A stretch of 60,680 bases of DNA, filler included, from Hausera hauseri (lineage: Eukaryota), in assembly GCA_046269625.1 (NCBI GenBank). It is 12 parts of 12 records of this genome, joined end to end, with 100 filler letters (N's around TTAATTAATTAA, not from the genome) between each part and the next. Parts side by side here need not be neighbours in the genome. Positions count along the whole stretch, not along the records: positions 8,853 to 13,327 come from JBJURY010563339.1; 11 more parts are not named here. One strand, 5' to 3'. This document shows, one piece after another, positions 3,558 to 60,680 of this stretch (position 1 is the first letter of the stretch; every line of letters begins with the position of its first letter). The notes beneath the pieces were generated by a model. It worked only from the letters and a program-made list of their open reading frames with translations, had not been told where the DNA came from and searched no databases. A program made the translations under genes and the position numbers.

Positions 3558-3709
3558 TTTTCAAGATAACTTTATTTATTTTAGCACTTGTATTGAATTA
3601 AAGAAAATTCTTAATACAGTTCTATCAAAATATCTTAAATAGATTCAATTATAACATAAAATAGGATAGCAAATATTTTCAGTTTCATAACATTCGTTTA
3701 AAAGCAAAC

Positions 3710-3725: not shown

Positions 3726-4114
3726 TGTTGGAGGGGTGTATTTTGATTTTGTAATTTATTATTATCGGTAGCTTCAGTATATTTAATCAGGATAAAAACC
3801 AAAAAAGAACTTTTAGGTGTTACATAAGTAGAGTTTGCAGGAAACACTGAAAAGAGTCAAATACTAACCAAAACGTTTTATATATATATTTGTGCATACA
3901 TAGCAATATAATTGAAGAAATAAATCATACATACATATCATCTAAGCGAAGAAAATCGCTGATTTTTATTTCTTCATCACAATTTACCAAACGACATTTT
4001 TGCTTCACATTTTTGGAGAGAGTTTATTAAGGTGTTGCCACACCTTTTTGAAAAAAAGAGGTTGATGTTTTTAGAGCGAAAAGGTTATTGAAATTTGAGG
4101 CGTTGAAGCTAACA
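3726..4114 (-). repeat. Copia LTR (389 bp, TGTTAG...CCAACA)
   Basis: TG...CA ends with an imperfect terminal inverted repeat, flanked by the PPT on one side and the PBS on the other. Confidence 0.85.
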
Positions 4115-4654
4115 TTCCCCCGGTTTCGCGAGAGAAACTTCAACAAGGTTTATGCCTTGTCGGCAGAATTCGAATTTAGCTTTTGGTAATGGCTTCGTCA
4201 TGATGTCGCCTAACATATCTTCACTCGGCTGGTACACTAATTTTATTATATTTTTGCTGTGTAGATCACGAACATGGTGATGCTTTGTATCAATGTGCTT
4301 TGTACGAGTGCTGTATTTTTCAGATTCTCCCAATTTTATTGTTGACTGGTTGTCTTCAAATACTTTTATTGGTAGGCTTTGTTTTAAATTTAACTCTTCA
4401 ACAAGTTTTAACAACCATGATAATTCCTGTAAAGATTGTGATAGGGCAACATATTCTGCTTCAGCTGATGATAAAGACACGCATGTTTGTTTCTTTGATG
4501 ACCATGTTATACAACTATCACCTAGAAAAATTAGGTTTCCTGAGGTTGATTTTCTATCATGTTTGTCTTGTGCCCAATCCGCGTCGCTGAACACTGTTAT
4601 GACTGGTTCTGTCTCTGATGAGAATAATAAGCTATTGTTTTTCGTAGTTTTGAG
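4109..4654 (-). CDS. C-terminal RNase H part of the same copia polyprotein
   Basis: FSDADWA..DRKSTSG...SSAEAEYVAL...EDNQS...KHID.KHH. In frame with 1-3557 across the 77-nt overlap; the joined ORF is 4026 nt (1341 aa). Confidence 0.93.
   Translation of the reverse strand, partial: LKTTKNNSLLFSSETEPVITVFSDADWAQDKHDRKSTSGNLIFLGDSCITWSSKKQTCVSLSSAEAEYVALSQSLQELSWLLKLVEELNLKQSLPIKVFEDNQSTIKLGESEKYSTRTKHIDTKHHHVRDLHSKNIIKLVYQPSEDMLGDIMTKPLPKAKFEFCRQGINLVEVSLAKPGEC
4115..4126 (-). promoter_or_regulatory. Polypurine tract
   Basis: AAACCGGGGGAA immediately precedes the LTR start TGTTAG. Confidence 0.7.
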
Positions 4655-4754
4655 NNNNNNNNNNNNNNNNNNNNNNNNNNNNNNNNNNNNNNNNNNNNTT
4701 AATTAATTAANNNNNNNNNNNNNNNNNNNNNNNNNNNNNNNNNNNNNNNNNNNN
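4655..4754. other. Artificial contig linker (first of 11)
   Basis: N44-TTAATTAATTAA-N44, a six-frame stop linker. Identical linkers at 8753-8852, 13328-13427, 22508-22607, 26914-27013, 31814-31913, 37029-37128, 41366-41465, 45644-45743, 49696-49795 and 55812-55911. Adjacency across linkers has no biological meaning. Confidence 0.98.
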
Positions 4755-7700
4755 ACACCAGAAATCGATCCATTCACACCTACTGAGGAAAAGGAATCAA
4801 CAGATTCGGTTAATGAAATCAACGAGATTTGTCCACTTCCTATTAGTGAGGAAGAAACGGAAGATATTGGTGATTTTGATCCAAAGAAATGGAAAGTTCG
4901 ACGTTCGTGGAAAAACGCCAATGAGTTAAAGAAAATGATAATTAGGTGTCACGACCCAGAAATACTACAGCGAAATTTAGAAAGGCTTAAACAGATTAGC
5001 GAACAAGTAGATATAACCGGAAAAGAACAACAGTATGCTGAGAGGTTATATAAAAGTCTAAAATTATGCAGCGAAGGAAAACTCGATGAAGCAATCAACC
5101 TGGACAACCCGAAGAGGTATCCACTGAGACGATGTCAAAATGGAAGCAAGAATTAAAATCATGGATTAAAAGTGGAGTCGAATTTTCCGAAGGATGGAGC
5201 AGAAACGAAGACAGCGTCGAAGTAAAAGTCACTAAAGCTCAGACGCTATTGTCTACTTTAGAAGCAAACCCAAAATTGAAGAGAATAGTACGCAATCTAG
5301 AGCGCACGATGGATGAAATTCGTTATGCAATGATTAATCGGCTTAGAGAAAAAACAGTTAGTAATCGAAGTAATATCGATTTAGAAATATTGGGTATAGA
5401 CCCAAAAGATATTCTTCCCTTGATGAAGATAATAAAAATCGCATTTGCTGTACCCAAACAATATACAAACCTAGAAAATCGAATCAAAATAGAAAATGTA
5501 AAGCGAGCACAGATTTATAGCTTGAGAAACCGAATTATTTTCCCAAATCACGAGTAGACTCAATACGTAGTAAAGGCTTGTATCATAGAATTGGACGAAT
5601 ATAAGGACGAGTTTAGTTATGTCAGCTGGATTATGAACTTCATAAAAGGGTCAGATGATGAGTTAAAAGGTGCATATAAAATGCTAGATAAGGCTATAAT
5701 CGCAAAGCCAATAATCGCCAACCAATTGTCAGAATGATCCGAATTAGTAACTCGACTAAGTAAATTAGTGGAAAACCGTAGGAAAGAATTTCCAGAAAGC
5801 GAGCCTTCTATAAAAAAACAGTTAGAAGAAAGTTCATGTAACCTAGACACAATAAAGACGGAGATAGATATCCGAATTCAATTTGAAGCATTACGACGAC
5901 TAAAATTTATGAAGAAGAAACAAGAAGCGACGATACTGGAAGAGATTTATAAAATGGTCGAAGAGACAAACTTTACAGAAAAGTGAAATATGACTTGCAA
6001 TTTTTACCAAAGATTGAAAAATGTCAGACTAGAAGAAGTCCAACATTTAACAGATAAACATATCTATGAGATCTCCGCCCAAGATATTGAAACACTAGAT
6101 ATTTGTCCGAAATATCAAGTCGCTTTGACGGACGCAATAAAATTTTTGCATAAAGCACAAGACTGGATGGCCGGATCAGGTCGGAATTTTTATACCGAGT
6201 TGACAAAGATAAGAGATGACCAACATCTTAGTTTTCAGGAAAATAGGTTCGTAAAGAAATTGTTGAATGCAATGGATCCCCACACAAAAGTCATAAATGA
6301 AATGTATGGGTTGGCAAACTTATTGGTAGAAATGGCAGAGATTAATGATGAGAATATGAGGCAATTGATGCCCAAATTACAGCAAGTAGAAGAAACGTGC
6401 ATCAGAACAAAACAAAGAGCAACAAGATTAGATGAACTAACAAAAGAGCTTGAAAGATACCGGAATAAATACGCCTTTACGGAATCAGATATCAAAAATA
6501 AGCAAGAATTTGTACAAAGATGGCAAAGGGATGTGATTATTGAACTAATAGATTATCACCAAAAAGGACTCATCAATTCTAATTAATTAGGCGAATTACT
6601 GAAAATGATTCAGTATTTCTGTGAAAACAGAATAGGTTTCCGAACTACGCAGATGAAAAAAATACAACCAAGATTGAAAGAGATTAGAGAAAATGTGCAA
6701 AGAACAAATACAGCCTTAGTGGGCTATGGACTTCCAGATGTTGGGAATGAACCGGAATGGTATGCGTATTTAGATGCGATGACGGCAGAGAAGCCCGTGA
6801 CTCCAGTACAGCTAAATGAGATAGAAACATGTCCGCAGAACAGGAGGTTTAATGTGGAGATGCTCCTGGATTCAGAGCTAACTGAAAAAGATTTAATCGA
6901 ACTAATTAACGTAAATATTACTGAAGGTAAGTTAAGGCAACTTATTCCTACATTAACTAAATTATCTAGTGAGAATACGATTTACAGCACGATGCCAAAA
7001 CTTTTGATAAGAGAATACTCTAAAATATTGAGGGCTAAACCTGAAGTAGGGATAAAAGTAATGGTATCGTCCGAGTGGATAGACGAAAAAGAATGTGAAT
7101 TAACTACATATTCCTATGTGAGAGACGTAAGAGAATGGTTATTAAACAATGGCGGAACGAATGAGCTAAATTATAGATTTTATTTCAGAGGAAGGATACT
7201 TGATGGTTTAGAACAATTAATAGATGTCGGGATTATACCCGATAAAACAAATCGAATAGTAGTAATAACAGCCAATGAACAAACTAAAAAAGAAACCGCG
7301 AGTAAGGCTAAAACAGAACAATGCGTAGGACAAATTATGGGTGTTCGAGACGCTGCAATATTTTTTGAGTATTTGCAAACGGGCGAAGATAAGGAACAAT
7401 ACGATATAAATTTAGTACCACTGAGTGAAATAACAACAAAAGGCCCAAGGCCGAAACGCACAGTTGGTAGGCCTAAAAAGACGCGAGAAGAAGTCGATTA
7501 CAATGGAGAATTGATCAGAGAACTAAGACAGATGTCGATTCCGACTTTCAGTACAAACAATGAGGAATTAAGCGAGTTAATGAAGAATTTAATACAAATT
7601 GTAAATTATTTAAGCCTTCGAGGTGATATATTAAATGATAAAGAAAAGATAATATTCGATGCAGCTAGAATGATGAGAAGTTAACGTTTTAAACTATCGA

Positions 7701-7993
7701 AAAGTAACTTAACGGATGAATCGGTAATCGAGATGATCATGGTAGAAAACACCAATGAAGAATTGAGAAAAGTATTACTATACTTAGCAATTAAAATAAA
7801 CCCTAATCGGGAGAATTAAATTAATAGGGCTATAAGCTTAGCGCAAAAAGCGGCAAGAAGACTGCTCTGCAAAGTAAATTGGTCAAAACTGTTTGACAAG
7901 GAAGAAGACAGACGGACTAGTAATAAACTTGACAACATGTTACGTAATTTAACAACGGCGGATGTTGGCTATCGGAAAAATGAATCAAACTGA
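4755..7993 (+). pseudogene. Large accessory protein (ORF X) of an env-bearing Ty3/gypsy element, copy A
   Basis: Track ORFs at 5132, 5768, 5990, 6605 and 8093 share one frame, broken only by point stops, plus one frameshift near 5120. Colinear with 56587-59830 (-). Contains a ubiquitin-like segment at 7052-7270. Confidence 0.8.
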
Positions 7994-8752
7994 TTAATTA
8001 GCCTACTGACCTTGATGATGCTAATAAAGCACATAAGCGCTGTTACCGTTAACGACTGAGATAAGTTTAAACTAGGGCAGAGATATTCCCTAATGGATCT
8101 GGAAGTGTGCGAAGATGCCAGACCACACAATTTGGAAACAAGAGAAAAAAATTACTTCCTGTACCAACAACAAGAACTGATATCGTTAAATGGAACGGAA
8201 TGCATGCTGAGACGATTGCGAAGCATTTTTTACTGTGGGCTAATACACGGACATTCCTCTATAATCAAGCCAACAACTCCGCTAATCCCAATGAACTTAG
8301 AACGCCAACACTGCAAACAACTTATGGAGACTTGAAGGATACAATGGACTGTATGCAATTAGAAATGCAACCGGGAGAGATGATTAGGGCATACAAAGTA
8401 GTGGTTGGAAGGTTAGATATGCATTGCGGACATTGTTACGGAGCTGAATACGACACCGGAAAAGGATTGCAAGCAAATGTGGTAGTCGTGGATTTCTACG
8501 AATCGGAGATGCGACCACAGAAAATAATGTTCCATAGTATCACTAAGTTATATACTGAGAATCATAAATGTCATTTACAAGACGGAACCTATGCTTTTAG
8601 AAGTTCTGTTATAATATGGGTACCTCCCTCTGGAAGAAGTTGCAATTTTATTAAAATTAAGGAACTGAAGTTTAATTAAACGACCGGAAAGCGATACGTG
8701 GATAGATTGGATACAAACTCAAGGACATGCGAAGACGTATCGGAACACTCTA
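7994..8752 (+). pseudogene. Chuvirus-like (class III) fusion glycoprotein N-terminal part, copy A
   Basis: Hydrophobic signal LISLLTLMMLI, then (Y/N)D(C/stop)...YSLMDLEVC...LYQQ...ECMLRR..IFYCGLIHGHSS. Frameshift near 8330; truncated by the contig end. Confidence 0.75.
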
Positions 8753-8852
8753 NNNNNNNNNNNNNNNNNNNNNNNNNNNNNNNNNNNNNNNNNNNNTTAA
8801 TTAATTAANNNNNNNNNNNNNNNNNNNNNNNNNNNNNNNNNNNNNNNNNNNN

Positions 8853-10300
8853 TCCGGTAGGTAGTATCGTGAGATTTCCTCAATTCGCCGACTGAGTCTA
8901 CATGTCCGGTTGTTTTCTCGCCCTTTTAAATTCGTGACAGCTTTATGGCCGGTAACAATAATGATTTTCTGCCCGTATACCTATACGTTAAAGTATCGTA
9001 GTGCTTCTTTTACAGCTAATGTTTTTAATTTTGTAACGGAATAAGTCTTCTTGGCTTTTTTTAACGAACGTCCTCCATATACAATTGATTGTTCCATTTC
9101 TTCATTTTCTCGCTTCTGATCTATTTGATATCCAATAACTTCTTTACCGACATCCGTCTTAATTATGAATGGCAAGTTAAACTCCGGGTATCATAAAATT
9201 GGTTCGCTTATTAAGATCTTTATTTCGTCGAAGGCTTTCTGTTCTATATCCGTCCTTTTCCATTTAATTCCTTTATTAAGTAAAAGATACAACAATGAAT
9301 TTACTTTTCAGTTGTCTGCTATATAAGTGGCGTATTATCCGCATAAACCTAGCTAGTGTCGTAACTCTTTCTGATTTTGTGCCTCCATGCAATCTGATAT
9401 TTTAGTCAGCAATGATTTATCTCGTTTTATCCTCCTTTTCCAACTATATGGCCAAGGTAGGGTACTGCGTTTTGAGCCAATATACATTTCTTGGAGTTTA
9501 GCTTTTATCCTGCTTGTTCTAATAGCATCAGTGTATCTTCGATATCCCTTAAATATTCTTCTGTTTTGAAGCTATCACTACGCCATCTAAGTATGCAAAT
9601 GCATGATCTAGTACCATCAGTATTTTATTCAACATTCTTGTAAAAACGGCTGGTCCGGTAGTAATATCAAACGGCATAGCATTAAGCTCATAAACAACAT
9701 CGGGCGTTTTTAACGCTGTTTTATTGCATTCTTCATCATTCATTTCTACTTGCCACTGTCCGGATTGTAAATCCCGAGTAATAATCCATTTTGCTCCAGA
9801 GAGCCTATCTAGAGCTTCTTTCACTGATGGCAGTGGGAAAGAATCTTTCATCATCAGATTATTCAATTCTCTATAATTAATGCAAAATCTGTGTTTTGCG
9901 CTACCTTTCTTTTTAACCCTAAGGATTGGCTTTTATTGACCCAATCTCTATTAGTTTTAGTGCTTGCAAGTCCATTGCTACGTTTGGTAGTCTTTTCAAT
10001 AGATCGCAGCCTAGAACTACATCGTCGGTTAATTGTTCCATAATTGCAAATTTGTGACGAAAAACTGTCCAACTGTGTGAACTTCTGTGTTCCATATAAA
10101 CATCGGTTTCAACATTTGGTCAAAGATTTCTGTGCTACCGGGATACTTCGTTGATGGTGGATACAACTATCCTCTTAACGTTTGAGAAATTGAATCATTT
10201 TTGATGCAAGACATCTTAGAACCTGTGTCGATTAGGGCGTAAACTTCCTAGTTTTCGATAGTGACTTTGGTGAAGGGTTTTCCTTATATTACCGTTTTGT
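8853..10300 (-). pseudogene. Ty3/gypsy pol (protease, RT, RNase H), decayed, copy B
   Basis: VYALIDTGSKMSCI (DTG at 10221-10229); RT DSFPLPSVKEALDRLSGAKW...MPF...FAYLDG; RNase H PFIIKTD...IVYGGRSL...YSVTKL.TLAV. Confidence 0.9.
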
Positions 10301-10949
10301 AACAATTGGTTGCCGCTATTTGGCGCTTAGTTGCCAATATTTTGTGACGGCTCATTCTGATTTTTGTGGAGGATACTATTTTTTCAGACCGTTATCTTAG
10401 TTCTCCATTTGAATATAGTATATTGTTCTCTATGTTTGATTCTAGATTTGTACTTCATTACCACTGATTAATGGTTTTTAATCATTCACATGTGGCTCTA
10501 TACTTGAAAAGTTTGTAACCTTTGATTTTCCACACGGGTTGTCTGGTTTCTATATTTCGATGTTCTCTATGGGAATATGACATTCTAGGATCGTCCGTAG
10601 GCTGTAGATAAAACATTCTTCGTAGGTATACGTAATGTTTCGTACCTTCGTAAGGGTCCGCCAGACTAATCGTTCTCTTATAGATTTATGTTTGATACGA
10701 ACCCATCGATTGCTTATCACAGTCTTCGTAGACGGTAGGGGAAGGGAGTAACATGGGCAATGCTGCCTTTATGATGGAATATGCATGATGTGTATCTATT
10801 TTAGAGAGGGCTTCTCCTCTCATAGGCTTCTCATCATATGAAATATTCATTAGCTTTTTGGGTTCGAGAAGCTTTCACATGTACAAAAATATATGTTTCC
10901 TTTTTCGTTTGCGATCGCGATAGTCGACGTGACATTCTACAATTATTTT

Positions 10950-12713
10950 CCATCTGCTTTCTTCATATGGCTTTAAAAACCTTTCGAAAGGTGTTATGAT
11001 CGCAATCAAGATTTTTCATGAGAATCTTGTCAACGTAGATATTTCGTATTCGTTAAATACTGCTTGGATTACTGTCTTCATTAGTTGTATTAAGAAATAT
11101 ATCGCTAGAAATGCGGATGCGGCTTGTCCAAGAATTAGAAATCTTCCACAAATTTTGTATAAGATTTCCGTGGTCACTCGTTGTTAATTGTTTGCACCGA
11201 GCAAAGAGTCCCATGGTATCGAGTATCGTCCACTACTGAGACAATGGCTCGGTTCAATTCATGTGTTCGTTGCAGCGGAAAAGCGAGATATTTTCAAAAG
11301 TCTTCGGTTTTTTTGACCCATATATACTTTCGATGAGATATTCTGGAATTTACCATTTGTAATTCCACTTACGAGATTAGTTCCTGTAAATTTAATTAGT
11401 GCTTCCATTTGGCAGGATTAACCAATCCGTTTCGCTATTTCTAAACATTGATTTTCCTAAACTTGCTTTACTTTCTGTAAGGATTGTTTGCTGAGTCGCA
11501 TTATCTAACAATACTCTAGTAAGTGGCATAACTAAATGAGGCATATTCTGGTATATAACTGCAAGTTCTTGTATGCACCTTTTTTCTTCGACATTGATTG
11601 ATACATCTCATTTTTCACATTCGTAAGTCAACAAGGCTGCACCAGTAACTCGACCGAAAATTCCTTTTGTCATGGAAATTATTAGTGATGCTAACTCCGG
11701 ATTTGAATAAATCAGCGCCAATTTTGTCCTCATGATTTCCGTCGCTTTTTTCATCTTGTGGTATAGTTCGGCTACCCTAACTTGTCCCTTGTAGTAAAAA
11801 TAGTCGTCTCGATTTTTCAAGTAATCCTATATTCGTTTGTTTTCGCACTTATTTCCGTTTGCTCGACTAAAACTCTTCGTAATTAGAGGCAAACATCACT
11901 CCTTCACAACGGGATGTTTTAATAAATGTTATTCCATGAGGGTCGGAGATTAACGTAGTAGGTGTAGAGTGTTCTGTTACATCTTCCCGTGTTTTCTTGT
12001 TGCTGTCAAACTTATTCATATATCGCTTAGCTGTAGTCTCATTGAATTTTAATTCCTTAATTTTAATAAAGTTAAAGTTCCTTTCAGATGGAGGTTCCCA
12101 TATTATAACAAAACTTCTGAAAGCACATATTCCATCCCGTAAATGACATCTTTCATTTTTGATATACAGTTTCGTGACGCTATAAAATATCATGTTCTGT
12201 GCTCGCATGTCCGTTTCGTAGAAATGCACGACTACTATGTTTGCTTCCATTCCTTTACCGATGTCATATTCTGCTCTAATACAGTTTCTGTTATGCATGT
12301 CTAGTCTTACGACCGCTACTTTATATGTTCTAATTATTTTTTCTTGTAGTATTTCAAGTTCTATACCGTCCTCTTGTATGCTTCCTGTTTCCTTAGCCTG
12401 CTTTTAATTATTTCGTTCTACATTCATCGAGATTAAGGGAATGTTTGGTTTGATTAGAGATGAATGTTAACGTGTCAATACTGCAGGACTGTCGTAACAT
12501 GCATCCCATTCCGTCTAATGGTACTAATTTTTGTTGTAGGTATGTGGAGTAGATTTTCTCTTTTGTCTCCAGTTTGTGTGGTCTGGTGTCTTTACACCAC
12601 TCTAAGTCCATCAAGAGGTATTTCTGTCCAAGTTTCAATTTATCGCAGTCATAGACTTTAACGGCACCTATCCGTTTTACTAACATCATCAGGGCAAGCA
12701 ACTGATTTGCCAA
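10950..12713 (-). pseudogene. Near full-length chuvirus-like fusion glycoprotein (env), decayed, copy B
   Basis: Signal + VYDCD N-terminus; GRVTGAALLTYEC..V......CIQELAVIYQN...VMPLTRVL core; C-terminal hydrophobic FLILGQAASAFLAIYFLIQLMKTVIQAVF and KILIAIITPF segments. Confidence 0.78.
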
Positions 12714-13170
12714 TTAGATTCGTTTCTTCGGTTATTATTATTTGTTTTGGTCAGATTTCGTACCATGTCTTCGAGTCTAAAACTATTACTGGACCGTTTG
12801 TCTTGTTCTTTCTCGAATAATTTTGACTAGTATACTTCTCGAGGCTATCTTCTAGCGGTTCTCCATGCCAAACTCGTAGCTTTGTTAAATTAACTGTCTC
12901 TATTGGGATTTCTTTTGATCGCTAAGTACATCAGTACTTTTCTTAGTTCTTATTTTGTGTCTTCTTTCATGATATTTTTATTATCAAATCGTCTGTTAGG
13001 TAAAGATGATAATTTCTTATTATTTTAGTTGTGTTAAATATTGCTTTCGCTTTATCGTGTAATATATTGCCATGGAGGCTTGAACAATTTACGATATGTA
13101 TTAATTTTTTTATTAACTCACTCAATTCTTCGTTTCTTCACTGAAAGTAGAAATTGTCATCTCACTTAAT
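12714..13170 (-). pseudogene. C-terminal part of accessory ORF X, copy B
   Basis: ELSEMTISTFS..NEELSELIKKLIHIVN.SSLHGNILHDKAKAIF aligns with ELRQMSIPTFSTNNEELSELMKNLIQIVNYLSLRGDILNDKEKIIF of copy A. It ends RRNESNW. Confidence 0.75.
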
Positions 13171-14239
13171 TCTCAAAACCAATTGTCAAAATATTTGGTT
13201 TTGACAATAAAAACACAAAAATCATAAATATACAAACAGTTATTAAACTGATTACATTGACGATTAAGCCCAGCACACATTTTTATTATTCAGTAAGCCA
13301 TGCATTAAAAAAATTTCACAGGGTGTGNNNNNNNNNNNNNNNNNNNNNNNNNNNNNNNNNNNNNNNNNNNNTTAATTAATTAANNNNNNNNNNNNNNNNN
13401 NNNNNNNNNNNNNNNNNNNNNNNNNNNTTTTGCACTTGTGTATATTTTAAATTTACGGTTTAGTTTAAATATTTCATTTGTGATTTTTTGGTCAATCCGA
13501 ACATCGTCAATATTTCAATATATTATTTGCTGCCATGATTTTCTTGAATTTTGTTTGGCAATGTCAATTTGTAAATTTTAAGTCAATTCGATTTTTATTG
13601 TGTTTGTCACATTTTATCAATTCAGCAATTTCAGATCATTTTTGGTGGTGACTCGATTTCTTAAAAACAATCAACTTGTGATTTTGCGTTTTAATTTCGT
13701 TGTAACTGAAAATAATTTCGTTATTTGTTTACAAAAAAATAATTTGTTTAAATGTTGTACAGATTTAAAATTTTTGGAAATAAAATTTTGAAATTGATTT
13801 CTGCCATTTTTCAATGAATCCTGCCATTTTGATTTTGTTTGCAATTTGAGAATTGTCGTTTCACTTATAGCAGTTTTCAACCGATTTATTTCAAGGATCT
13901 TGGTGCGTCTTTTTGAATAAGTTGTGGTTTCGACAATTGCGATTTTGAAGACATTTGTTCGGACATTCTGATTTTATATTTTGATCGTTTGACCAGTCAA
14001 AAGTTAGACATCTATTTATATCGTTTTAAAATCTATTTTAGTTATTGATTGTTAATTCCATAATTTAGTCATTTCAGTCATTTTTAATTATTCCTATCAT
14101 TTCGGATATCTTACAATTGCGGATTTTATCATATTGGTCGTTAGATTTCTCTAATTCTGAATTTTTGTCAGTTGACATTTTCACGTCTTTATTATGATTT
14201 TATCGTCGACTTGTTGCATTGTTACAAATAACAATCGGT

Positions 14240-15950
14240 ACATGCCTTTTGGCTTGCAAAATTCTTTCAACGCCACAGAGATGCTATACTTTCTGATTTC
14301 CCATATGCTTATCCCTATATCGATGATATATTAATCGTTTCTTCTTCAACTTAACAACACGAAAAACACCTTAGATCAATTTTTAGCGTTTACACCAGTA
14401 TAATCTGCAAATTAATTTCCAAAATGTCACTTTTCCAGAAGCTTATAAACTTCCTTGGTAACAATCTTCCGAAGGCCACTCGCCTCAGCCCGATCGAGTT
14501 GAAGAGCTAAAAAACGTACAGCTACCTCAAACAACAACAGAAATGAGGAGCTTTTTAGGAACTTAACACTTCGTTCACAAGTATGTGCCGTACTGCTCTA
14601 AACTTACCGCACCATTTGCTCACCTCAGTGGTAGAAAATAACACCAGCCAATACAATGGAACCCTGAACTAGTAAACAAATTCGAAAAGCTAAGAGAAGG
14701 TTTAAAAACTGTCGAGATATTAGCTTTCCCCAAGCATGATGCACAGCTGATCCTCACTACAGACGTCTCCACCACCTCTGTGGGCGCCATACTTCATCAA
14801 ATCTATAATGGAAAGAACCAGCCTTTGGAGTATTTTTCACGCAAGTTAACACCTCCTGAAACTAGGTACTCAACGTTTGAATGAGAATTATTGGCTATCG
14901 TTATCACTTTAAAGCATTTCTCCCACCTACTTGTCGCTCGCCATTTTACCATACAGACCGATCACAAGCCCTTGCTAAATATCATGGCTATAAAACATCT
15001 TTCCTCATGCCAAGAACGACAGATATCATATTTGTCGACATTTAAATCTGACATAAAACATATTAACGGGCTTAGTAATTTGGTTGCCGATTTTTTATCT
15101 ACGACGGTTGGTTCGATTAATTTTTCACCAATCTTCTCTCAAGTACAACTTCAACAGAACTAGCCACCTCAGGACATGCTTAATTCTTTTAAGTCTTGTA
15201 CAACTGTTGACGGCGTAGCTTTAGACACTTCCAAACCAGGTCATTCCGTTATAATTCTCGCACCACCTTTACAACGGCAGGCGTTTAACAATGTACATGT
15301 GCTACACCACCCTGGCGCTAAAGCCACCTTTCGTACTAGTTTGGCCGTCACTGCGTTACGATGTGCAAACCTGGGTTAAGGAGTGCGTGGCCTGCCAAAA
15401 GTACAAAACAACTAAGCATTTTAAGCCACCACTATTCCACTTTCCATGCATATGGCGTTTTGAATCCATGCATGTTGACATCGTCGGCCCTCTTCCTCCG
15501 AACAACGGTTATTAATTCATTCTCACCATGGTGGACCGTTCCTCGCGATGGCCAGAAGCCATTCCTCTACGGAGTACAAATACCGATACCGTAGCTGACG
15601 TTTATATTCGTACATCAATTAGCAGGTTTAAATAACCTCGCTTCATCATCACGGATCTAGGTCCACAGTTTGAATCCAACGTGTTCAAATCCCTTATTAA
15701 CCGATTGGGAATCCAGCACATACATACTAGGCCTTACCATCCCCAATCGAATGGCCTTTTAGAAAGTTTCCACCGAACATGGAAAACGTCAGTAAGAATT
15801 CTTGCAGAGTCGAACACTAGTTGGACGAATCTTCTTCCGTTTTTTCTGCTTGGCTGGCGGAATACTCCGTCTACTTATGCAGGATGCTCACCCACTGAAG
15901 CCTTATTCGGAGCTCCTGTACGGTCATTATTCGAACTTACTGCCCTAGAC
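14240..15950 (+). pseudogene. CsRn1/Kabuki-like Ty3/gypsy pol fragment (RT C-terminus, RNase H, integrase)
   Basis: MPFGL, YPYIDDILI, LTTD.STTSVGA.LHQ, TDHKPL, HVDIVGPLP, RWPEAIPL, YHPQSNGLLE.FHRT; many frameshifts. Confidence 0.9.
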
Positions 15951-17155
15951 GATTGTTGTGTCCAACAAGGACTTGGCTGTCTAATCTGTCCAAATCTGTA
16001 TTTAAAACTGACTCTCTTACTTTTGAAATACTGTAGGTATACATCATCATAGATATTTGTCTAATCGAAAAATATCCATTGGGAGAGGAAAAAAGCTATA
16101 GACAACCAGCGTTATAAAATTTCAAATTTAAAAAAAGAATTGTATGATAGGATGTTTGAAAAATAACCTTCAATATCGAAAGAAATACCCAAACTAAATT
16201 TCCAAAATGGTTAACAAAACTTCAATTCAAAATGTTGAATAATTATTTATTATTAAAACAAGAAGAAATTTTTAAGACAATAGAATGTATTATTTGATAT
16301 CGATAATGTTGGATGGGTGGGTGGACTGCTACGATCATCAGTCAGATCAATGAACTGATTCTTTTTTATTGGAACTTCAAGGACATCATCATCATCATCA
16401 ACGAAATCCTGTTTGTTCTTTAATAATTTTGGTCTTTTCAAAATTTTATCATCCTTTATCGTTGTCTTAATTTTAATTGGTAGGTCAGGCAATTTCCTGG
16501 TGCCGATATATGTATCTTTCGCAGCAAAGGACACTATACATTTTTAAAACAAATGGATTTATTAAAATATCGTTCGAACAGCTCAATATCGCTGATAATT
16601 TTTGGCTACCAATCTTTTCCTCGGTTAATTTGAATTGCATAATCGCCGTTGGTAAAATGCATATCGGAAATTTAATCGTTCTGCAAAATTGCACTGTTTC
16701 ATTTACGCTTTCAAATCCAAGAAGTTTTGAAAAAAAATTTATGCGGAACCGGATTAACTTTCTCAGAAACTTTGAAATTAACGTAAGCTTTATTGATAGC
16801 TTGAAAAGCATGAGTACGCACTTTATTGATAAAACGATGTATTAAACAACTAAACAGAAGTTCCGATTGTTTTAGTATGCAAAAGAACTGAACGCAATTT
16901 TTAAAATAAATCACACTCAAAATTCCTTTGCCAACTTAACAAATGGGGACTCGAACACATCTGTTTGAAAACTCTGAGCTTTGCTGACGATATCGTCATA
17001 AGTCAAGAGCATCATATCACTGAGAAATTCCGCTTCTTCAGCAAGTATTGCAATTTGGTCGATATGATATCTTTACTCTGGAACAGATTTTTGCTCATTT
17101 GTTAAAGCGGTGGAAGAAATGTATTATTTTCGACGTTCGCCGATTTGACTTCAAA

Positions 17156-20100
17156 TGTGTCAGATGAACTCGACGTAACTTCTTTCGAGGCGGAAGATTG
17201 GGCCTGCCTATGGTCCCGATGCGGTGAAAACGGACGCCCGGCCGTGTTCAACCAAATGGGTCAGAGGGCGCCGGGCACTGTGGGCATTACATCACCCCCT
17301 CCCAGGTCTAGAGGTTAAAACTATAAAAGAGCAAAATATACAGAAAAAAAACCGCAAAACGAAAAAGTATCTGTGTCAGTCGGTCTTACTGTGGACAAGA
17401 CATTTGGTGCCTTTTACTGATTTTCCCCTGCTATACTTGCTGAATGTGACTCTGCGTGTTTTGTTTTTTATACTATGTGTGTGCTTGCAGTGTTTGAATT
17501 TGGGGAAAAATTGTCAGATTTTGTTGTAAGTGTTGCATCGTACAAAGATGAGTCAGAGTAAAGAGAAGGAGAAAGCGAAGGAGGAAGAGAGATTGTTGAA
17601 GACGAAGGAATGATTAAAGGTGTAGTGACGATAAAGGAAAAGAGAAAGAAGTTGGAGTAGAAACCGAAATGAAATTGTGTGAAAGAGCAGAAGTGGAAGA
17701 TGAAACAGAGGTATTGGTAGAGAAAGAAAAAGACATGGGGATAGAAGTAAACAAAGGAGAAATTCGCGAAGTCGACGTGAAAGGGGCGGAAGACGATGTG
17801 TGAGGAGAAAGGGAAAAGAAAGCGCCGAAGATGAGGAAGGTGTAGAAACAGAAGGAGAGAGAAGACGGCGAAGAGGTACAAAACGCAAGACAGCAGAAAG
17901 ATGGAGAAGGCGAAGGAAACTAACTGAAAAGTGATGTGCAAGAGGTTGGAATGATGAAAGGTGTAGATGGAGAGATTGGTGAAGTCGAAGTGGTGTTTGA
18001 TGGAGAAAGTACTGCAAAAGGCAAAAGCAGGTTGTTATCAGGGGATGGAAGAGGTATTGGAAGGCTTGAAGGTGCAAAATCGGATGGGGAGAAAGAGGTT
18101 GAATTGTTAGAAGAAATTGAAGTGTAAGTTTTGGGAGAAAAGGTAGGAGAAATTGGATTAAGACATTGAGCAGAGATGGAAGGTGAATTGTAGGATTGCT
18201 GCGCGTCGTATGAAGAGGTTGGTGTAGAAGTGACTTCGATTGGAGACGTATCGTCGATGAAGAAATCCGGCTTAGCATTATTAATGTGAACGGTTACTTC
18301 TTTACCGTCTTTGAGAATACTGATGTTGTGGACGTATAATCGAATTACCTTGTAAGGGCCGACATACTGAGATTGAAAACCACACCGCGTCTGATTCTTT
18401 AGCCAAACGAACTTGGCAGTATATAAATCGTCGGATATGCAAGGTTTATTTGCGTGTAACAATCTGCAATATGAGTCTTTGCTGATCGCAATAAAGTGTC
18501 TCTGTACCGCTTGTATGGTTTCTTCTGTTGGAGTATTTTCCAGCTCAGTCAGCTTAATTAATTATCTGATGGCAGTGCCAAATAATGCTTCTGCAGATAA
18601 ACAGCCTGTAGAAGTAGATGGTGTGTTCCGCCAGCCAAGCAGAACGTACGGATGGAGTGTGGTCCAACTGCGATTGGACTCTGCAAGGATTTTAGGAGAC
18701 GTTTCCATCGTTCGGTGAAAGCGCTCGAGAAGGCCATTTGATTGGGGATGATATGGTGACGTTTGAATGTGGTTAATTCCCAATCGATTGACCAGTGCTT
18801 TAAACAGGTTGGATTCAAACTGTGGACCTTGGTTCGAAATGATGTGGCGAGATGATCAAAACCTGCTGATCCAAGTGCGGATTAAAACGTCTGCGATGGT
18901 TTCTGTGTTGGTGCTCCGAAGCGGGACGGCCTCTAAGCATAGCGACAAACGGTCCATCATTGTGAGGATGAACTGATGACCGTTGTTTAAGGGTACTGAG
19001 CCTACAAGATCAATGTGCACAGATTCGAAACGAGACGTGCTGGGAAAATGAAATAGTGGTGGCTTTAGGTGCTTAGTAACTTTGTATTTTTGGCATGCCA
19101 CAAACTGCGTAACTTATGGCTGCACGTCATAGCGCATCGACGGCCATACTATTTGGCGTTGTAAAAGCGAAAAGTGGCCTTGGCACCGGGATGATGCAAC
19201 GAATGAATGCTATTGAATGCTTCTTTTTGAAGCGATTCAGAAAGAATGATTTTGGGATTATTAGGTTTGGAGGTGTCAAAGGCCACACCGTCGATGGTTT
19301 CGTATGATGTAAAAGATTTAAGGATGTCAGGAGGTGGCTGGTTTTGCTGAAGTTTGGATTGAGGAAAAATTGGTGTAAAATCAATTGAGCTGACCGACCA
19401 GGACATAAAGTCCGCTACTAAATTGTCGACTCCGTTTAGATGCTTAATTACAAAATTAAATATTGACAAATGTGAAATGGATGCAGCTGTTATGGATGCG
19501 TCCGTGGTTAAGAAGTGTTCTGCATGGGAATTTGGATAGGCCAGGATTTCTACAGTTTTTAAATTGTCTTTGAGGTGATCGAAAGCATTGACTAGTTTGA
19601 CGGTCTATTGAATAGGCTGTTTCTTCCGGCCAGAGCTTAGTGATGCAAATGGAGCAGTTAGAGTAGAACAGTGAGGAACATAATTATGAATGAAGTGCGA
19701 GTTTCGAGAAAAAAACGCTTCTCTGTTCATGTACGTGGTAGCTGTATGTTTTTGAGCTGTGTGATGCGCTCCTGCTGAGGTGAATATCCGGAGGAGCTAA
19801 TAACATGTCCTAGGAAGTTGACCTTATGTTGAAAAAAGAGCATTTGGCGAAATTAATTTGCAAATTGTTTTGGTGCAAGCGCTGGAAGATTAGACGTAAG
19901 TGTTCAGAATGTTGTTTCGTGGAATATGAGGCAATTAGGATATTATCACTATAAGAATAAGCAAAGTTTAAACCTGATAGGACTGTATCTATATGCCTTT
20001 GGAAGGTTTGGGAAGCTCTAGGGAGTCCAAAAGCATAAAAAGGTACTCAAAAAAGCCAAAAAGTGTAATGACAACCGTTTTCAGAATGTCTTCTGGAGCC

Positions 20101-22507
20101 ACCGGAATTTGGCGGTATGCTTTGTGTACGTCAATACAGGAAAAGATAGTCGAATCATGGAGCCTGTGAAGGATATTGTTGATTAATGGTAGAGGGTAGG
20201 CATCGATGGTTGTTATGATGTTGAGTTGTATGTAATCACCGCATGGGCGAAAGGTACCATCTTTTTTTGGAACCACGTGCAGTGGTGAAGACCACGGGGA
20301 TTTAAATCTTCTGATTATGCCTGATCTTTCCAGTTCGAGAAACTCAGCCTACACTGCCTGTCTGCGGCGAGGCGATAGCAGGCGGGCCTTTGCTGTATTG
20401 GTCTTTGATGTGCTGTTATTACGTGATAAAAGATGGATTGAGGTGGTACGAATGATTTATCCTTTTGCAACAGACGCGTGCAGGAAGACGAAATATATTG
20501 TTGTAGATCAGAAGGCAACGATGAAAACTTATCAGGTGGTGTCGATGCATGGTGACTGGATGCAGTTGAGGTATGAGTTGTAGACAAGGTGTTTTGACTA
20601 GGTGGTATTTGGTTCAGGATGTTCGTGTTGAAGATGGTGTTGGCAGCTTTACTATCAGTAATAGGTGTCACACAGTTGGCAATATCGTATTTGTCACCGC
20701 AGTAAAAATTTCTGTATAATGAATGATTATCAAAATAATTTAAATCGGAAGTCGTTTTCTTCGGTATTTACTTGCTGGAAGCGATCGTCCGGGTGGCCAC
20801 CGAAATGCTGCTAAACTGATTAAGATTATTTCCGCACTTTAAGGAACATCGTTTGCAATCTACAAGTAAATTGTAGTGGGATAGGAAGTCTGAACCCAAT
20901 ATAGGTGTGCGTACATTGGCTATTGTAAATTTCCAAGTGAATGTGTTTGGGAAATTTGGGAGTGTGAAAGTTAATTTAGTAACACCAAGAGTTTGTAAAA
21001 GTTCAGCGGACGCAGTGAACAGTTGCTTTTTTGAAGTGAAATTGTTTTGAATGTGTTGTGTTGGTGGTAGTAAAGAGATTGCTGCGCCGGTGTCTATAAG
21101 AAAGTTAATGTTTTGCTTTGTTGGAGTGACAACTGCCGCTTCCAACGTGAATACAGCAAAGGAAATGTGTCGGCTATCTTTTAGCAGGTTGGTGCCTTTG
21201 CTAGGACTTGACGTGTGTCCTAGCGGCAAAATAAGTTTTTTGTAGCTGGTGAGTTTGGCCTACTGTTTTGTGTGAACATAGTAGTGTTGATCTTATTGTG
21301 TGTGTTGTAGTTACAACCAGTTAGGAATTTTTGTGCTTTTGTGTCAAATTTTGAGTGATAGAGGCAAACGATATTGCCTGTATTAAAGTTATGGGAGTAA
21401 ATTTAGCAACCTATGTAGCATTTCTGAGCATTGTTACCACATTTGCCATGATAATAGCAAATAGATGACCGTGTGGGCAAAGGCGACCGTCTTTGACGTT
21501 GATTAAATACATTAGGGGAAGCAGCCCTAGAAAAAGCCCGTAGAGGCAGCGTTCATTCGATTAATTTTTCGTTTATGTCGTTAATTGTCTTCTGTAACTT
21601 TTCATTTTCCGTGCGTAATTGCGCAATTTATTGCTGCAGCATTGCACTTTGTTGTTATTGGTCTGCTGTCAATGCTGCAGAGACGGTTGGTGTTGTGTGA
21701 GTGCAGTACTTCATATGCATTGTCTGTCAGTTTGGCTAGCTTGTCCAGAGCCACTGAGTCTTCGACCACGGTAAGCAAAGCTCTTATTTGAAGGGCTAAT
21801 GCATTTAAAAAATAGCGACTATTAAGTTCTGAACTATGATCAGATGTTACGCCAAGGGTGTTGAGGTGAGACAAGGATGTGCGTAAGAATTCAGAAGGCT
21901 TCTGAAGGCCCATGGAGTTATCGTTGAAGAACCTTTAATGATGAAGTCGATTGACGGCTCAGTAAGCTTGAGAACGGCATTGTAAAGTTGAGTATATGGG
22001 TCAGTGTGATGAAGTATATCGATGATATTGGTAATTTTGGTTTTGATGGAATCAGATAAATGAAAAAACAGGCTATTGGCTTTGGATAAAGAGTCGACGA
22101 CGTTTTGTGATTGGAGCCAAAATTGGTGCAGTTTTAGCCAAGTCTGAGTAGAGTTTTGGCTGTCGAGGAAGTATTCTGTGCAGGGTGAATGAGTGAGGAG
22201 GGTGTGTTATGTCGAGGTGTTTGAAGCGCTTTGTTTGGGTAAATGAATGATAGGGATCTGTGGTTTGGTGAGTTTGTCCGGGCGTCAGTTGTGGGTGATG
22301 TATCCATGCCACCAAGGACACGGAAGTGAATGTTAAGGCAGACAAAAGTTGCAGAAGTTTGGAGGGGTTCAGCGAAAGGCACTACAGATCTATTGTATGT
22401 GAGGTAGAAGTCAGAGAAGTGGAGTAAGGTAGAGATGAAGTTGTAAATGGCCGGAGTGTGTAGGTGTAATGCTCTATATGTATGAATATATTAGTAGTGT
22501 AAAAATG
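17156..22507 (-). mobile_element. CsRn1/Kabuki-like Ty3/gypsy element, near full length, decayed
   Basis: Gag (~22300-21300) with CHCC fingers; protease FLIDTGAAISLLP; RT (20276-); RNase H with an internal deletion near 19480 relative to the copy at 47400-47650; integrase; S/T/P-rich tail. PPT GGGAGGGGGTGA (17292-17303) precedes LTR start TGTAATGC at 17291. A matching LTR end GCATTACA lies at 22465. The left boundary is uncertain. Confidence 0.88.
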
Positions 22508-25600: not shown

Positions 25601-26588
25601 TTTTTAGCTTCAGGCCCAGAATCTTGGGACCTCAGAAATTACTGTTTTGTGTATGCAAATGTTAGCATATTCCTACAATACTGCTTTTATGCCTATGTAT
25701 TTTTTTGCAATAATTGTGAAACTATTTCATTAACCATTTATTTGCATTAATTGAAAAACTATGGTCGAGCAATTAATACATGGTTGAAAGCCCAAATTCA
25801 CCAACAAAATATAGGTAGCCTTCAGATCCAGGCCTCCCTTGAAAAAGAGATCTGTGATCTCATGGGATTAGTCTGGTTAAAAAATAGTAAAATAAATATC
25901 AGAATTACAACATGATATAAATTTGAGGACGATAGAAACGACAAAATAAAATATCTGTAAGTGAGATGTTACTGGTTCTGAAAGAAATATAGCTCTCACT
26001 CACCTCTCCTATGTGGAATGCAAACTTGGTAGCACATTTGTCTGAGGCATACTCGGTTCTGGCTCCGACATCCAGGCCTTTTAAGCTATCCAAGGCATTC
26101 ATCCACACGAAGTCAGTGTAGGGTCGGTGGTGTTTGGCCAAAGCATGAACTGTCCGGAATTTGAGACACATTCGTTCCAGCTTATCTTGGTTCATTTTTG
26201 CTAGCATCTGCTCTGCAGGGCTCCTCAATGGCGAGATCTCTGCTGCGTTCTCGGCGGCCTGCTCTCTACGGTGCCTCTCGCTGTGCTCGTGCTTAACTAC
26301 TGATGTTAATTGAAATGATTTTGAACCTACCGCAAAGCTGCATTTCGCATCTGCTTGACCATAGTTGTTGTCTCTGCACAAAGAGCAGAACATGAGGTCC
26401 TGCGCCTTATCGAATACAAGCCATGGCCGACCAGAGGCCCACGAAGTCCGATAATCTCTCTTCCTCCTATTTTTATCATATTCCATATCAGCCTTTCGTT
26501 TTTCCGCCTTACTTTGCTGGTTGTGAGAGGCTGTGGAGGGAACCTTCAGTTTCAGTGCCTCAAACATAGATATCTGTCGGTTCGCCAT
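22642..26588 (-). CDS. Spliced hAT-family transposase, ZNF862-like (TTF zinc finger, DUF4371, hAT dimerisation); probably lesioned in exon 5
   Basis: GT-AG exons: 26588-26004, 25426-24963, 24755-24596, 24300-24080, 23885-~23647, 23353-23230, 23011-22642. Motifs RPWLVFD..MFCSLC, VMDGSTD, GTDGAAVM, HCYAHRLELA, GTRWL, TIPATSAEAERGFSEMKLIKT..R.RL. Confidence 0.85.
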
Positions 26589-56586: not shown

Positions 56587-59500
56587 TCAATTTGATTCAT
56601 TCTTTCGGCATTCAACGTCGTTTGTTGTTAAATTTCGTAACATATCGTCGAGTCTATTACCGTTTCGTCTATCTTCTTCACTGTCAAATAATCTTGACCA
56701 ATTTACTTCGTAAGGCAATCTTTTTGCTGCTTTTCGTGCTAAACTTACCGCTCTATTGATTTTATTCTCTCGATTAGGGTTTATTTTGACAGCTAAGTAT
56801 AATGGTATTTTTCTTAATTCCTCGTAAGTGTTTTCTATCATGAGCTTTTCGATTACAGCTTCTTCGATTAAATTACTCTTCAATAGTTTAAAACGTGAGC
56901 TTCTCATCGTTCTAGCTGCATTAAATATTATCTTTTCTTTCTTGTCTAATATATCACCTTAAAGGCTTAAATAATTTACAATTTGTATTAAATTTTTCAT
57001 TAATTCGCCTAATTCTTCATTGTTGGTACTAAGGGTCGGAATTGACATCTGTCTCAGTTCCTTAATTAGTTCTCCATTGTAATCTACTTTTTCTCGCGTC
57101 TTCCTAAGCCTACCGACTGGACGTTTCGGCCTTTGTCCTTTCGTTGTTATTTCACTCAGTGGTACTAAATTTATGTCATATTGTTCCTTATCTTCATCTG
57201 TTTACAAATATTCGAAATACAAGGCAGCGTCTCCGACTGCCATAATTTGTCCTACGCATTGTTCTGTTTTAGCTTTGAGTGTGGCTTCTTCTTTAGTCTG
57301 TTCGTTAGCTACTGTTGCTACTACTCCGTTTATTTCGCCGGGAATGATTTCGACCTCTATTAATTGCTCTAGGTCATCAAGCATTTTACCCCTAAAATAG
57401 AATCTCTAATTTAGTTCGTTTGTTCCACCGTTATTTAATAACCATTCTCTCACGTCCCTTACATATGAATGCGTGGTTAACCCACATTCTTTTTCGTTCA
57501 TCCACTCTAATAATATTAATACCTTCATTATTTCTCCGGTTTATCCCTTAAAATTTTAGCGAATTTTTTTATCAAAAGTTTCGGCACCGTTCTGTAAATC
57601 GTATTTTCACTAGACAATTTAGTCAAAGTTGGAACATGTTGTCTTAACTTATTTTCAGTAATATTTACGTTAATTAGTTTAATTAAATCTTTTGCAGTTA
57701 GCGCTGAATCCAGGAGCATCTCCACATCTAATCTCCTGTTTTGTGGGCATGCTTCTACCATTTATTTGTACTGGAGTCATGAGTTTTTCGGCCAGTATTG
57801 CGTCGAAATATGCGTCCCACTCCGGCTCATTTCCGACATGTGGAAGTCCAGAGCCTACCAAGGCTACACTCGTTCTTTGCACATTATCTCGAATTTCTTT
57901 CAACCTGGGCTGTATTTCCGTCATCTGCGTACTCCGGAAACCTACTCCATTCTTACAGGCATACTGAATCATTTTCAGTAATTCACCGAATTCGTTGGAA
58001 TCAACGAGGCCTTTTTGGTTTTAATCCGTTAATTCAATAATTACATTCTTTTGCCATCTTTGTACGAATTCTCGCTTATTTTTGATTTCTGATTCTGTAA
58101 AAGCATATTTGTTTCGGTAGCTTCCGAGTTCTTTTGCTAATTCATCTAGTCTCGTCGCTCTTTGTTTTGTTTTGATGCATGTTTCAATTCGGTGTGGAAA
58201 TTCTGATCTGATCCGGCCACCCATTCTTGCGGTTTGTGCAAAAATCTTATCACGTCTATTATCGTAGCTCGGTGTTCCGGACAGATGTCTAGGGTCTCGA
58301 TATCTTGGACCGAGATCTCATCGATAAGTTTATCTATTAGATGTTGACCTCCTTCTAGTCAGACATTTCTCAATTTTGGATAGAAATTGTATGTCATATT
58401 CCGTTTCTCCGTAAAATTCGTCTCTTTGACCATCTTATAAATTTCTTCCAATAACGTTGCTTCTTGCTTCTTTTTCTTGAATTTAAGTCTTCGTAGTGCT
58501 TCAAACCTCGTTCGGATATCTATTTCTGTTAATACCGTATCCAAATTACGTGCACTCTCTTCTAACTGTTTCTTCACAGAGGGCTCGCTTCCTGGAAATT
58601 CTTTTTTTTGGTCTTCCACTATTTTGCATAATCTCATTACTAATTCAGACCATTCCGACAACTGATGGGCGATTATTGGCTTTGCCATTATAGCCTTATC
58701 TAACATTTTGTATGCGTCTTTTAATTCATCATCTGGTTCTTTTATAAAGCTAATAATCCGGCTAACATAACTAAATTCGTCTTTATATTCGTCAAATTTC
58801 AGGATGCATGCTTTTACTACGTATTTAGTTTCTTCATTGTTTGGAGACATAATCCGATTTCTCAGACTATAAATCTGAGTTCGTTTTTTATTTTCTATTT
58901 TGACCAGATTTTCCAAATTCGTATATTGTTTGGGCACAGCAAATGCGATTTTTATCATTTCCATTAAAGGAGGCATATCTATTGGGTCTATACCCAATAT
59001 TTCTAAGTCTACATTACTTTGACTATTAACCGATTTTTTTCTGAGTCAATTGACCATCGTGCAACGAATTTCATTCATCATACGTTCTAAATTTCGAACT
59101 ACTCTCTTTAGTTTTGGATTCGCTTCTAGGCTAGCCAAAAGTGTTTTAGTCTTAGTGACTTTTATATCCACTCTATCTTCGTTTTTGTTCCATCCTTCTG
59201 AAAATTCTACTCCGCTTTTAATTCATGCTTCTAATTTATGCTTCCATTTTGACAATGTTTCATGTGATATCTCTTCAGGTTGCCCTAAGTCAATTGCTTC
59301 GGCGAGCTTTCCTTCATTGCATAGTTTTAAGCTTTTATAAAGTCTCTCAGCAAACTGCTGTTCTTTTCCGGATATATCCACTTGTTCTCTAATCTGCTTG
59401 AGCCTCTCTAAATTTCGCTGTAGTACTTCTGGTTTGAGGCACCTAATTCTCATTTTCTTTAGTTCATCGGCGTTCTTCCATGAACGTCTTACTTTCCATT

Positions 59501-59830
59501 TTTTGGGTCACAATCGTCAGTATTTTCCATTTCTTTCTCATTAATGGGAAGCGGACAAATCTCGTTATTCTCGTTCGTTGATCCTATAGACTCTGCGGTT
59601 TCGACAGGCGTGAGTGACCCGATTTCTGATGTATTTACATTATGTCCTATGCCGTCTTCTATAACGATGTTCGGACTTTCTGTTTCTTCAATTCTCTGTC
59701 TAGTTACTTGAGAACGTGAACGACTCATACGTTTCGTCTTAAATGAAGGGCTACGACCTCTATTTTTTGTAATTTTAAGTATTAATGGCTCCATAAATTC
59801 CCTTTCTGCTGTATCGTCCTTAATAAACTT
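56587..59830 (-). pseudogene. Large accessory protein (ORF X), copy C
   Basis: Series of ORF pieces colinear with copy A from CPLPI to RKNESN; ~190-bp internal deletion near 58190. Confidence 0.8.
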
Positions 59831-60680
59831 ATCTACTTCTCAACCGTGAACTCAGGCGCTGCGTCTAAGTCGACTTCCGTTGAGGAGCCTGGTTTATCCA
59901 ATGGTTTATTACTTGTTGGAACACCCTTTTTTCCGTGTCATGTCGCTTCGTTTGGTGCTATCACTTGCTCATAGTAGTTTCTGGTTTCACTAATCCATGA
60001 AATACTTCTAGTAGCCTTAGTTTATTTCCGTACTTTTTTTTAGCCATCAAAATTTGTGGATTACTGGATTCAGGCTGAGTGTCTAAAAACTTCCGTAAAT
60101 CTTGTATATCGATGATAGTGCCTGTATCCCCTCGAACGCCATACTTCGCTTCTAAATTTTCGTCAGTTCTGATCATACTAGTCTTATTTGGCTTAGTAAA
60201 TAAAACGCTACGTGGGTTTGAACATGATCTCGAAATATTTCCTTCTTTACCACAAGTAAAACAGACTAGATTCCCATTTCTACCGACTTTTGTCGACCGT
60301 CTTTGTTCACTCGTGACTTGGATCTGTTCATACTTTTATTATATTGGTTTGACGAACTTTAGGCATTATCTACATTTCGTCGATTACCCATATTTCGATT
60401 ATCGCCATTTTGATATGAGTAATTCGAGCATTTACCATTTTTTTCTATTCCTATCCCAGTTCAAATCTGATCTATTTGTATTAGTATAATTGTTACCTCC
60501 GCCATTCTTGTAACTGCTATTTCGATTCCCATAATTTTTGTTATCCGTAAATCGTCTGTCATCTCTTCCACGATTGTCGTACCGATTTTTACCGTTACGG
60601 TCGTTTCGATCGTTATTCCTATCATTTCTATCGTTATGTCTGGCGTATCTATCGAGTGCCATTTCTAAATCTTGGGCTAA
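59831..60680 (-). pseudogene. Gag C-terminal region (R/D/N-rich tract + zinc knuckle), copy C
   Basis: RNDRNDRNNDRNDRN tract; CFTCGKEGNISRSC at 60222-60263 (CCHC knuckle with H>N, a one-base change). Confidence 0.72.

Follow-up and report, generated by a model that had tools for sequence, protein, structure and literature searches.

A broken chuvirus-like envelope gene ahead of pol in a decayed Ty3/gypsy element of Hausera hauseri

The window, i.e., the whole 60,680-nucleotide stretch of Hausera hauseri DNA that was analysed, includes 11 identical artificial linkers of 100 bases (44 N, ttaattaattaa and another 44 N) and hence consists of 12 short contigs, so that the proximity of genes across a linker carries no meaning. 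An env-like gene is found in three copies, here denoted A, B and C, each on its own contig (Table 1). At the nucleotide level, B and C share about 80-81% identity, as against 69% between A and either of them. The env of B and C is cut by the contig end after about a third of its length, and only in copy A is a reverse transcriptase (RT) present on the same contig. Altogether 2,465 contigs of one DNA sequencing run align to contig A at 85% or higher, over env and pol alike, which shows that this is a repeated family, without making a copy number derivable from that count; none of the listed pieces of this run spans contig A. The sequencing runs listed for the element comprise one of the DNA type, which may be where the window itself comes from, and none of the RNA type.

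Table 1. Positions of the linkers, the three env-bearing copies and their features in the window
Feature	Positions	Strand	Evidence or remark
Linkers	11 sites: 4655-4754, 8753-8852, 13328-13427 ... 55812-55911		
Copy A contig	8853-13327	-	element on minus strand
Copy A env (signal, ectodomain, transmembrane helix), broken	10950..12713	-	PF24664 E 8e-9; four profile pieces
Hydrophobic internal signal sequence, copy A	12660..12713	-	hydropathy 1.55 over 15 aa; ends before VYDC, putative cleavage
Predicted transmembrane helix (LILGQAASAFLAIYFLIQL), copy A	11082..11138	-	hydropathy 1.88
Decayed 3' end of cargo (ORF-X) before env, copy A	12720..13174	-	
Aspartic protease remnant (ALIDTGS), copy A	10188..10280	-	RVP E 0.035 (under the cut-off); tblastn gives weak matches to proteases of relatives
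Ty3/gypsy RT, broken, copy A	9430..9929	-	RVT_1 E 6e-13; Ty3 RT 4OL8 E 4e-19
RNase H, copy A	8864..9250	-	RT_RNaseH_2 E 1e-19; RT_RNaseH E 6e-18
Copy B contig	4755-8752	+	
Copy B cargo (ORF-X), >1,000 codons	4755..7990	+	from 5090 on in frame with env
In-frame TGA just before env signal core, copy B	7991..7993	+	
N-terminal part of copy B env, truncated at the contig end	7994..8752	+	PF24664 E 9.5e-8
Copy C contig	55912-60680	-	
Gag zinc knuckle (CFTCGKEGNISRSC) after R/D/N-rich gag tail, upstream of ORF-X, copy C	60219..60266	-	zf-CCHC E 0.09, below cut-off
Copy C cargo (ORF-X)	56590..60200	-	about 80% identical to copy B
Same TGA, copy C	56587..56589	-	
First 225 codons (N-terminal) of copy C env, the best preserved; truncated at the contig end	55912..56586	-	PF24664 E 2e-15

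A Pfam scan of the window frames, run with X at stop codons, matches PF24664 (Monjiviricetes_fusion) in all three copies, with 34.4 bits for A, 30.9 for B and 56.2 for C against the curated cut-off of 27; the match falls in the last third (the C-terminal piece) of A and at the start of B and of C. An env profile of 634 positions, derived from 12 relatives that are intact, aligns to copy A in four pieces, each in a single frame (profile positions 6-84, 94-318, 321-467 and 539-611; E from 5e-13 to 3e-29), and this coverage is, by sequence comparison, far beyond chance. Given that positions 6-611 of 634 are matched in four frames, copy A is full length but carries at least three frameshifts (near 12480, near 11835 and between 11400 and 11250); eight stops were counted in the four pieces. 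Conserved cysteine columns are kept at 9 of 14 in A and at 8 of the 9 spanned in C. Of 13 relatives, 11 have a hydropathy peak where env begins, and all 13 have one matching the transmembrane helix. An Atlas search with one env piece gave no usable match. Judged by these features, the copy A gene is a real, broken glycoprotein gene of the PF24664 family. The motif string that the earlier note had reported across the three copies is a composite, the window being 12 joined contigs: exact searches find F.CG..H.H.S and LYQQ in B and C only, YDC in A and C only, and C..V...C.QEL.V.Y.N, PLTR.L and F..LG..ASA.L.IY in A only, with the whole set in no single copy.

The differences at the three codon positions amount to 0.14/0.06/0.32 between the env genes of B and C and to 0.25/0.18/0.44 between those of A and C. 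Because the copies differ mostly at third positions, env and the cargo ahead of it were under selection while the lineages replicated; B and C diverged under purifying selection. At present, all three copies are dead; in particular, copy A, with its three or more frameshifts and eight stops, is not infectious. The potential cell-to-cell infectivity suggested earlier hence does not extend to A, B or C, all of which are broken.

The fold was assessed with an AlphaFold2 model of an intact relative, P0002 (mean pLDDT 72), which is only 26% identical but matches copy A at the start, in the middle and at the end. In the Foldseek PDB list for this model, the top matches are all herpesvirus gB (E 3e-13), and in VIA-align four gB chains rank first with Z from 10.0 to 7.7 (the best with rmsd 9.3 over 372 aligned residues). 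In BFVD, the G protein of Tacheng tick virus 4 leads (E 2e-40), and the leading matches are G proteins of chuviruses, chu-like viruses, qin-related viruses and xinmoviruses (E 2e-40 to 1e-28). The TM-scores are low (0.27-0.49) and the rmsd values high, as expected for a monomer model with domains arranged differently. The window's own partial model, for the ORF-X fold and the env gB-fold check alike, is poor (pLDDT 46). The class III assignment is sound, and it extends to the window env by homology, through the model of P0002. This agrees with the class III, chuvirus-related glycoprotein proposed in the earlier note, which had suggested a Foldseek search with a corrected consensus; the gB and chuvirus G matches were obtained with the intact relative instead. 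The G proteins of chuviruses (Wenzhou crab virus 2, Tacheng tick virus 4) share with the window env PF24664, the class III fold and the cysteine spacing, but are encoded by stand-alone viral genes and, in the trees described below, fall outside the window env clade.

On the minus strand of contig A, env is followed by about 670 nt of badly decayed sequence, a protease remnant, the RT, in which the catalytic YxDD reads YLDG, and RNase H. The contig ends in RNase H, so that an integrase and long terminal repeats (LTRs) are not visible for this copy. No Pao family is listed for the window frames or for the 19 relatives scanned with Pfam. By these domain matches, the carrier of copy A is a Ty3/gypsy element with the protease-RT-RNase H order, in accord with the earlier attribution to gypsy rather than BEL/Pao; of the linkage claimed between the env genes and a gypsy RT, the type of the RT is borne out, whereas the shared contig is limited to copy A. 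Given the succession of gag knuckle, cargo and env on contig C and of cargo, env and pol on contig A, the order of genes is gag-cargo-env-pol instead of gag-pol-env. This order was pieced together from two copies, with an overlap of about 1.1 kb of homology between contigs C and A; no single contig of the window carries gag, env and pol together. The non-insect host assumed in the earlier note would be in keeping with this layout.

A homolog search with the copy C env identifies 44 proteins (best E 2e-26), and the closest relatives are envs embedded in gag-env-pol polyproteins, not chuvirus G. The only named chuvirus G among them, that of Wenzhou crab virus 2 (P0038), ranks 38 of 44 with E 1e-4 and is only 28% identical over 150 amino acids. 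An alignment-based homolog search returned only 4 proteins, a right-frame search for env homologs among longer proteins found none, and a related-locus search from P0048 yielded 31 pattern matches and 0 relatives. Among the 19 relatives scanned, 10 have a protease above the cut-off after env and in the same frame, followed in 5 of these 10 by RT, RNase H and integrase in gypsy order; a gag knuckle precedes env in P0001 and P0003. In the intact P0003, P0004, P0039, P0045 and P0048, env and RT are separated by a stretch with two to four aspartic-protease domains, and P0045 (4,844 aa) additionally contains a C2H2 finger and ankyrin repeats.

In each of the three copies, env is preceded by the same cargo, which is about 1,100-1,200 codons long and runs into env in frame on contig C; in copy A, the end of ORF-X together with env is 69% identical at the nucleotide level to positions 7518-8752 of copy B. 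The gag knuckle region of copy C has a tblastn match to residues 173-246 of P0001 (E 2e-4). The cargo of copy B aligns with P0001 396-896 (E 4e-19, over a stretch that takes in the env start) and with P0048 534-662 (E 5e-9), and no Pfam family is found above the cut-off in the ORF-X of copy B. This cargo possibly includes a ubiquitin-like stretch near 7050-7265 and, possibly as well, a helical Bcl-2-like stretch near 7560-7860. Both domain names come from sub-threshold matches in P0001 only, which has, ahead of env, a gag knuckle, a weak ubiquitin match (E 0.03) and a weak Bcl-2 match (E 0.055). The N-terminus of P0002 retrieves Bcl-2 in VIA-align at Z 5.9, at rank 36. For the window's own cargo, the two labels are not confirmed by PDB, Pfam, profile or fold searches: the ORF-X sequence has no match in PDB, its model has no Foldseek match and a best Z of 6.6 on unrelated helical bundles, and the Atlas gives 0.75 to an unnamed cluster. 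A profile search retrieves, over the putative ubiquitin-like stretch, only 1wx8, a ubiquitin-like structure, at E 1.4.

We consider it highly probable that copy A is the broken env of a Ty3/gypsy element, with gag and cargo before it and protease, RT and RNase H after it, which likely once produced a class III fusogen from the middle of a polyprotein and likely served to move particles between cells. One long reading frame would yield Gag and the cargo in the cytosol, and the internal signal would thread the Env ectodomain into the endoplasmic reticulum, to be cut before VYDC. The transmembrane helix would stop the transfer, leaving the enzymes in the cytosol to be freed by the protease of the element. 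Budding Gag particles would acquire membrane-borne Env trimers and then fuse with neighbouring or germ-line cells; for the env of copies A-C, trimer formation and membrane fusion are predicted functions. Fusion of this kind has been proposed for the soma-to-germ-line spread of Drosophila errantiviruses (PMC13524379).

A variant of this scheme concerns the border between cargo and env. In copies B and C, the two share a frame with an in-frame TGA between them, flanked by the conserved RKNESN on one side and the hydrophobic core of the signal on the other, whereas decay hides the env-pol frame; given this TGA, the B/C lineage may have lacked one uninterrupted polyprotein. This is the only stop common to the two copies (1 of 8 stops in B and 1 of 10 in C, over 1008 aligned codons). 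In the B/C sublineage, Gag and cargo could thus end at a real stop, with Env and Pol produced by UGA read-through or from a spliced RNA and Gag in excess, a possibility that appears unlikely. It is compatible with the position of the sole shared stop exactly at the border, with flanks conserved at the protein level (RKNESN and LI[SN]LLTLMM) in two copies that diverged under purifying selection, and with the UGA CUA of copy C, a leaky context known from alphaviruses. However, independent decay predicts 0.27-0.41 shared stops in the B/C alignment, so that chance would account for the shared TGA in roughly one quarter to one third of cases. Furthermore, only two copies are informative, copy A being frameshifted at the site, and no stop interrupts the relatives P0001 and P0048 there. 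No RNA structure common to B and C was seen downstream of the TGA in a comparison run without a shuffle control. The fuller version, in which a Burro-like sublineage would have a leaky UGA in the env signal, make Env and the enzymes by read-through and carry a ubiquitin-like and Bcl-2-like cargo on abundant Gag, is similarly doubtful.

The descent of env was addressed with two quick trees, the first including 37 of 54 fetched proteins (those with the N-terminal domain covered) and two window rows, and the second 18 chosen proteins and two window rows; the rows, chosen for their similarity to the query, include one named chuvirus and no Anakin, Burro, nematode or Pao RT sequence. In both env trees, the window rows, which are long and gappy, fall among the polyprotein envs, apart from the viral-G rows (SH-aLRT 94 and 100). 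Of the phylogeny suggested in the earlier note, with chuvirus G and Anakin env, these trees cover the chuvirus G part: the window env lies outside the clade of Wenzhou crab virus 2 G, from the one named chuvirus. Holding the window rows with two virus-G-like rows costs 92 log units and is rejected (AU p 5e-54). The nearest tree rows of the copy A RT are P0006, P0045 and P0004, all env-bearing polyproteins. For the P0006 env-pol polyprotein, the NCBI record (HBK71150.1) belongs to a Flavobacteriaceae metagenome-assembled genome, probably as a result of eukaryotic contamination.

These results bear on the independent env capture favored in the earlier note, according to which a gypsy lineage took up a chuvirus glycoprotein separately from other env-bearing elements. 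Such an event would fit the best viral structure matches, which are chuvirus and chu-like G proteins, the long branch of the window env, and the published GAG-ENV-POL elements, which are not monophyletic in pol (PMC13524379), so that several captures are possible. Nevertheless, it is very improbable here: the polyprotein envs outscore the Wenzhou crab virus 2 G (2e-26 vs 1e-4), the grouping with virus-like rows is rejected, and the relatives indicated by env and by RT coincide. Because the window env groups with polyprotein envs, independent capture is not supported; an old Burro-like lineage is the likely source of both env and pol, as opposed to a fresh uptake of env from a virus. Least plausible of all is an origin of env as a stray glycoprotein of a virus or of a BEL/Pao (Anakin-type) element, with the gypsy pol as a chance neighbour, nested insertion or assembly chimera. 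In its favor are the finding of such glycoproteins mostly by fragmentary gypsy pieces (Dezordi et al. 2023, PMC10084718), the heavy decay of the 670 nt that separate env from the protease, and the fragmented assembly. Against it, the strand, spacing and order equal those of 10 intact relatives, the same cargo lies ahead of env in all three copies, and no Pao family appears in the window pieces or the relatives.

Other contigs of the window contain further mobile elements and a few other long frames. The segment 53301-55811 (-), which is on a different contig from copy C although the two touch in the window, encodes a decayed gag and cargo with 41-71% identity to P0021 (residues 24-634), a polyprotein whose PF24664 match is at 1345-1952, and probably represents another env-bearing family. 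A decayed gypsy element at 41782-45450 (+) retains a zinc knuckle, RT, RNase H and integrase; its contig has no env match, and the RT at 43520 groups on the same side as the env-bearing RTs in the RT tree. A further gypsy family is represented by four copies, all decayed and 64-85% alike, at 14265-15953, 17816-20740, 28446-30695 and 45754-48848. A Ty1/copia gag-pol, open over 1,186 codons, occupies 3-3560 (-) and 4109-4654 (-); positions 4578-4654 are an exact repeat of the window's initial 77 bases, which points to a contig that was circularised or to a very young element. The zf-C17orf113 zinc finger at 25908-26609 (-) (E 8e-13) is probably a part of a DNA transposase. The region 49796-53240 consists of about 51 copies of a 68-bp tandem repeat with 77% matches. 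A frame at 32336-36385 (-), nearly open over about 1,350 codons in four stop-to-stop pieces, has a weak C2H2 finger match only. Finally, 37130-41363 (-) contains long open frames, one of them with spectrin repeats (E 3e-8) and no match in PDB, and is probably a host gene.

Several known systems resemble the reconstructed element. In the planarian Burro/GYPSM1, Gag, a cargo with ubiquitin/SUMO-like and BCL2-like motifs, and an env similar to mononegavirus fusion glycoproteins precede the protease in frame, in one polyprotein of about 5,000 aa (Arkhipova & Yushenova 2019, PMC6431247). The shared traits, judged from the published description with no Burro sequence compared, are an env between gag and protease that resembles mononegavirus fusion glycoproteins, and a long cargo between gag and env; of the ubiquitin/SUMO-like and BCL2-like motifs before env, the counterparts here are sub-threshold matches in the closest relative P0001. 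Unlike Burro, the window copies are in decay and seem to be more compact, with the sole visible protease about 670 nt from env, and MATH, BIR, ankyrin and dUTPase are not seen here. Gypsy elements with gB-type env occur across animals, including 114 with Anakin-homologous glycoproteins in arthropods, and an ancient origin has been argued (Chary & Hayashi, eLife 2026, PMC13524379). The GAG-ENV-POL order is reported there for Nematoda, Bryozoa and Platyhelminthes; these "ancient errantiviruses" likewise combine a Ty3/gypsy pol with a preceding gB-type env homologous to Anakin and chuvirus G, but are intact and often LTR-flanked, in contrast to the decayed window copies. By description only, the flipped env/pol order also likens the element to the non-canonical endogenous retroviruses of nematodes, which belong to Ty3/gypsy (metavirus) (Sacco et al. 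2022, cited in PMC13524379). Mosquito Anakin elements are LTR retroelements with a chuvirus-like glycoprotein as well (Dezordi et al. 2020, PMC7642597), differing, again by description, in their BEL/Pao carrier versus gypsy here. Given that Dezordi et al. 2023 (PMC10084718) saw no clear gypsy capture of the glycoprotein, the combination with gypsy would look new until the 2019 and 2026 papers are counted; both this combination and the env-before-pol layout are already published (PMC13524379; PMC6431247).

The element of H. hauseri thus adds one more divergent family (about 30% identity to any relative found), apparently abundant, to the published class of gypsy elements with an env. This is in line with the view that gB-type envelopes have long accompanied gypsy pol, as opposed to being fresh captures. 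If the shared UGA of copies B and C is functional, it would show a solution to the Gag-to-Env/Pol ratio problem of a single polyprotein.
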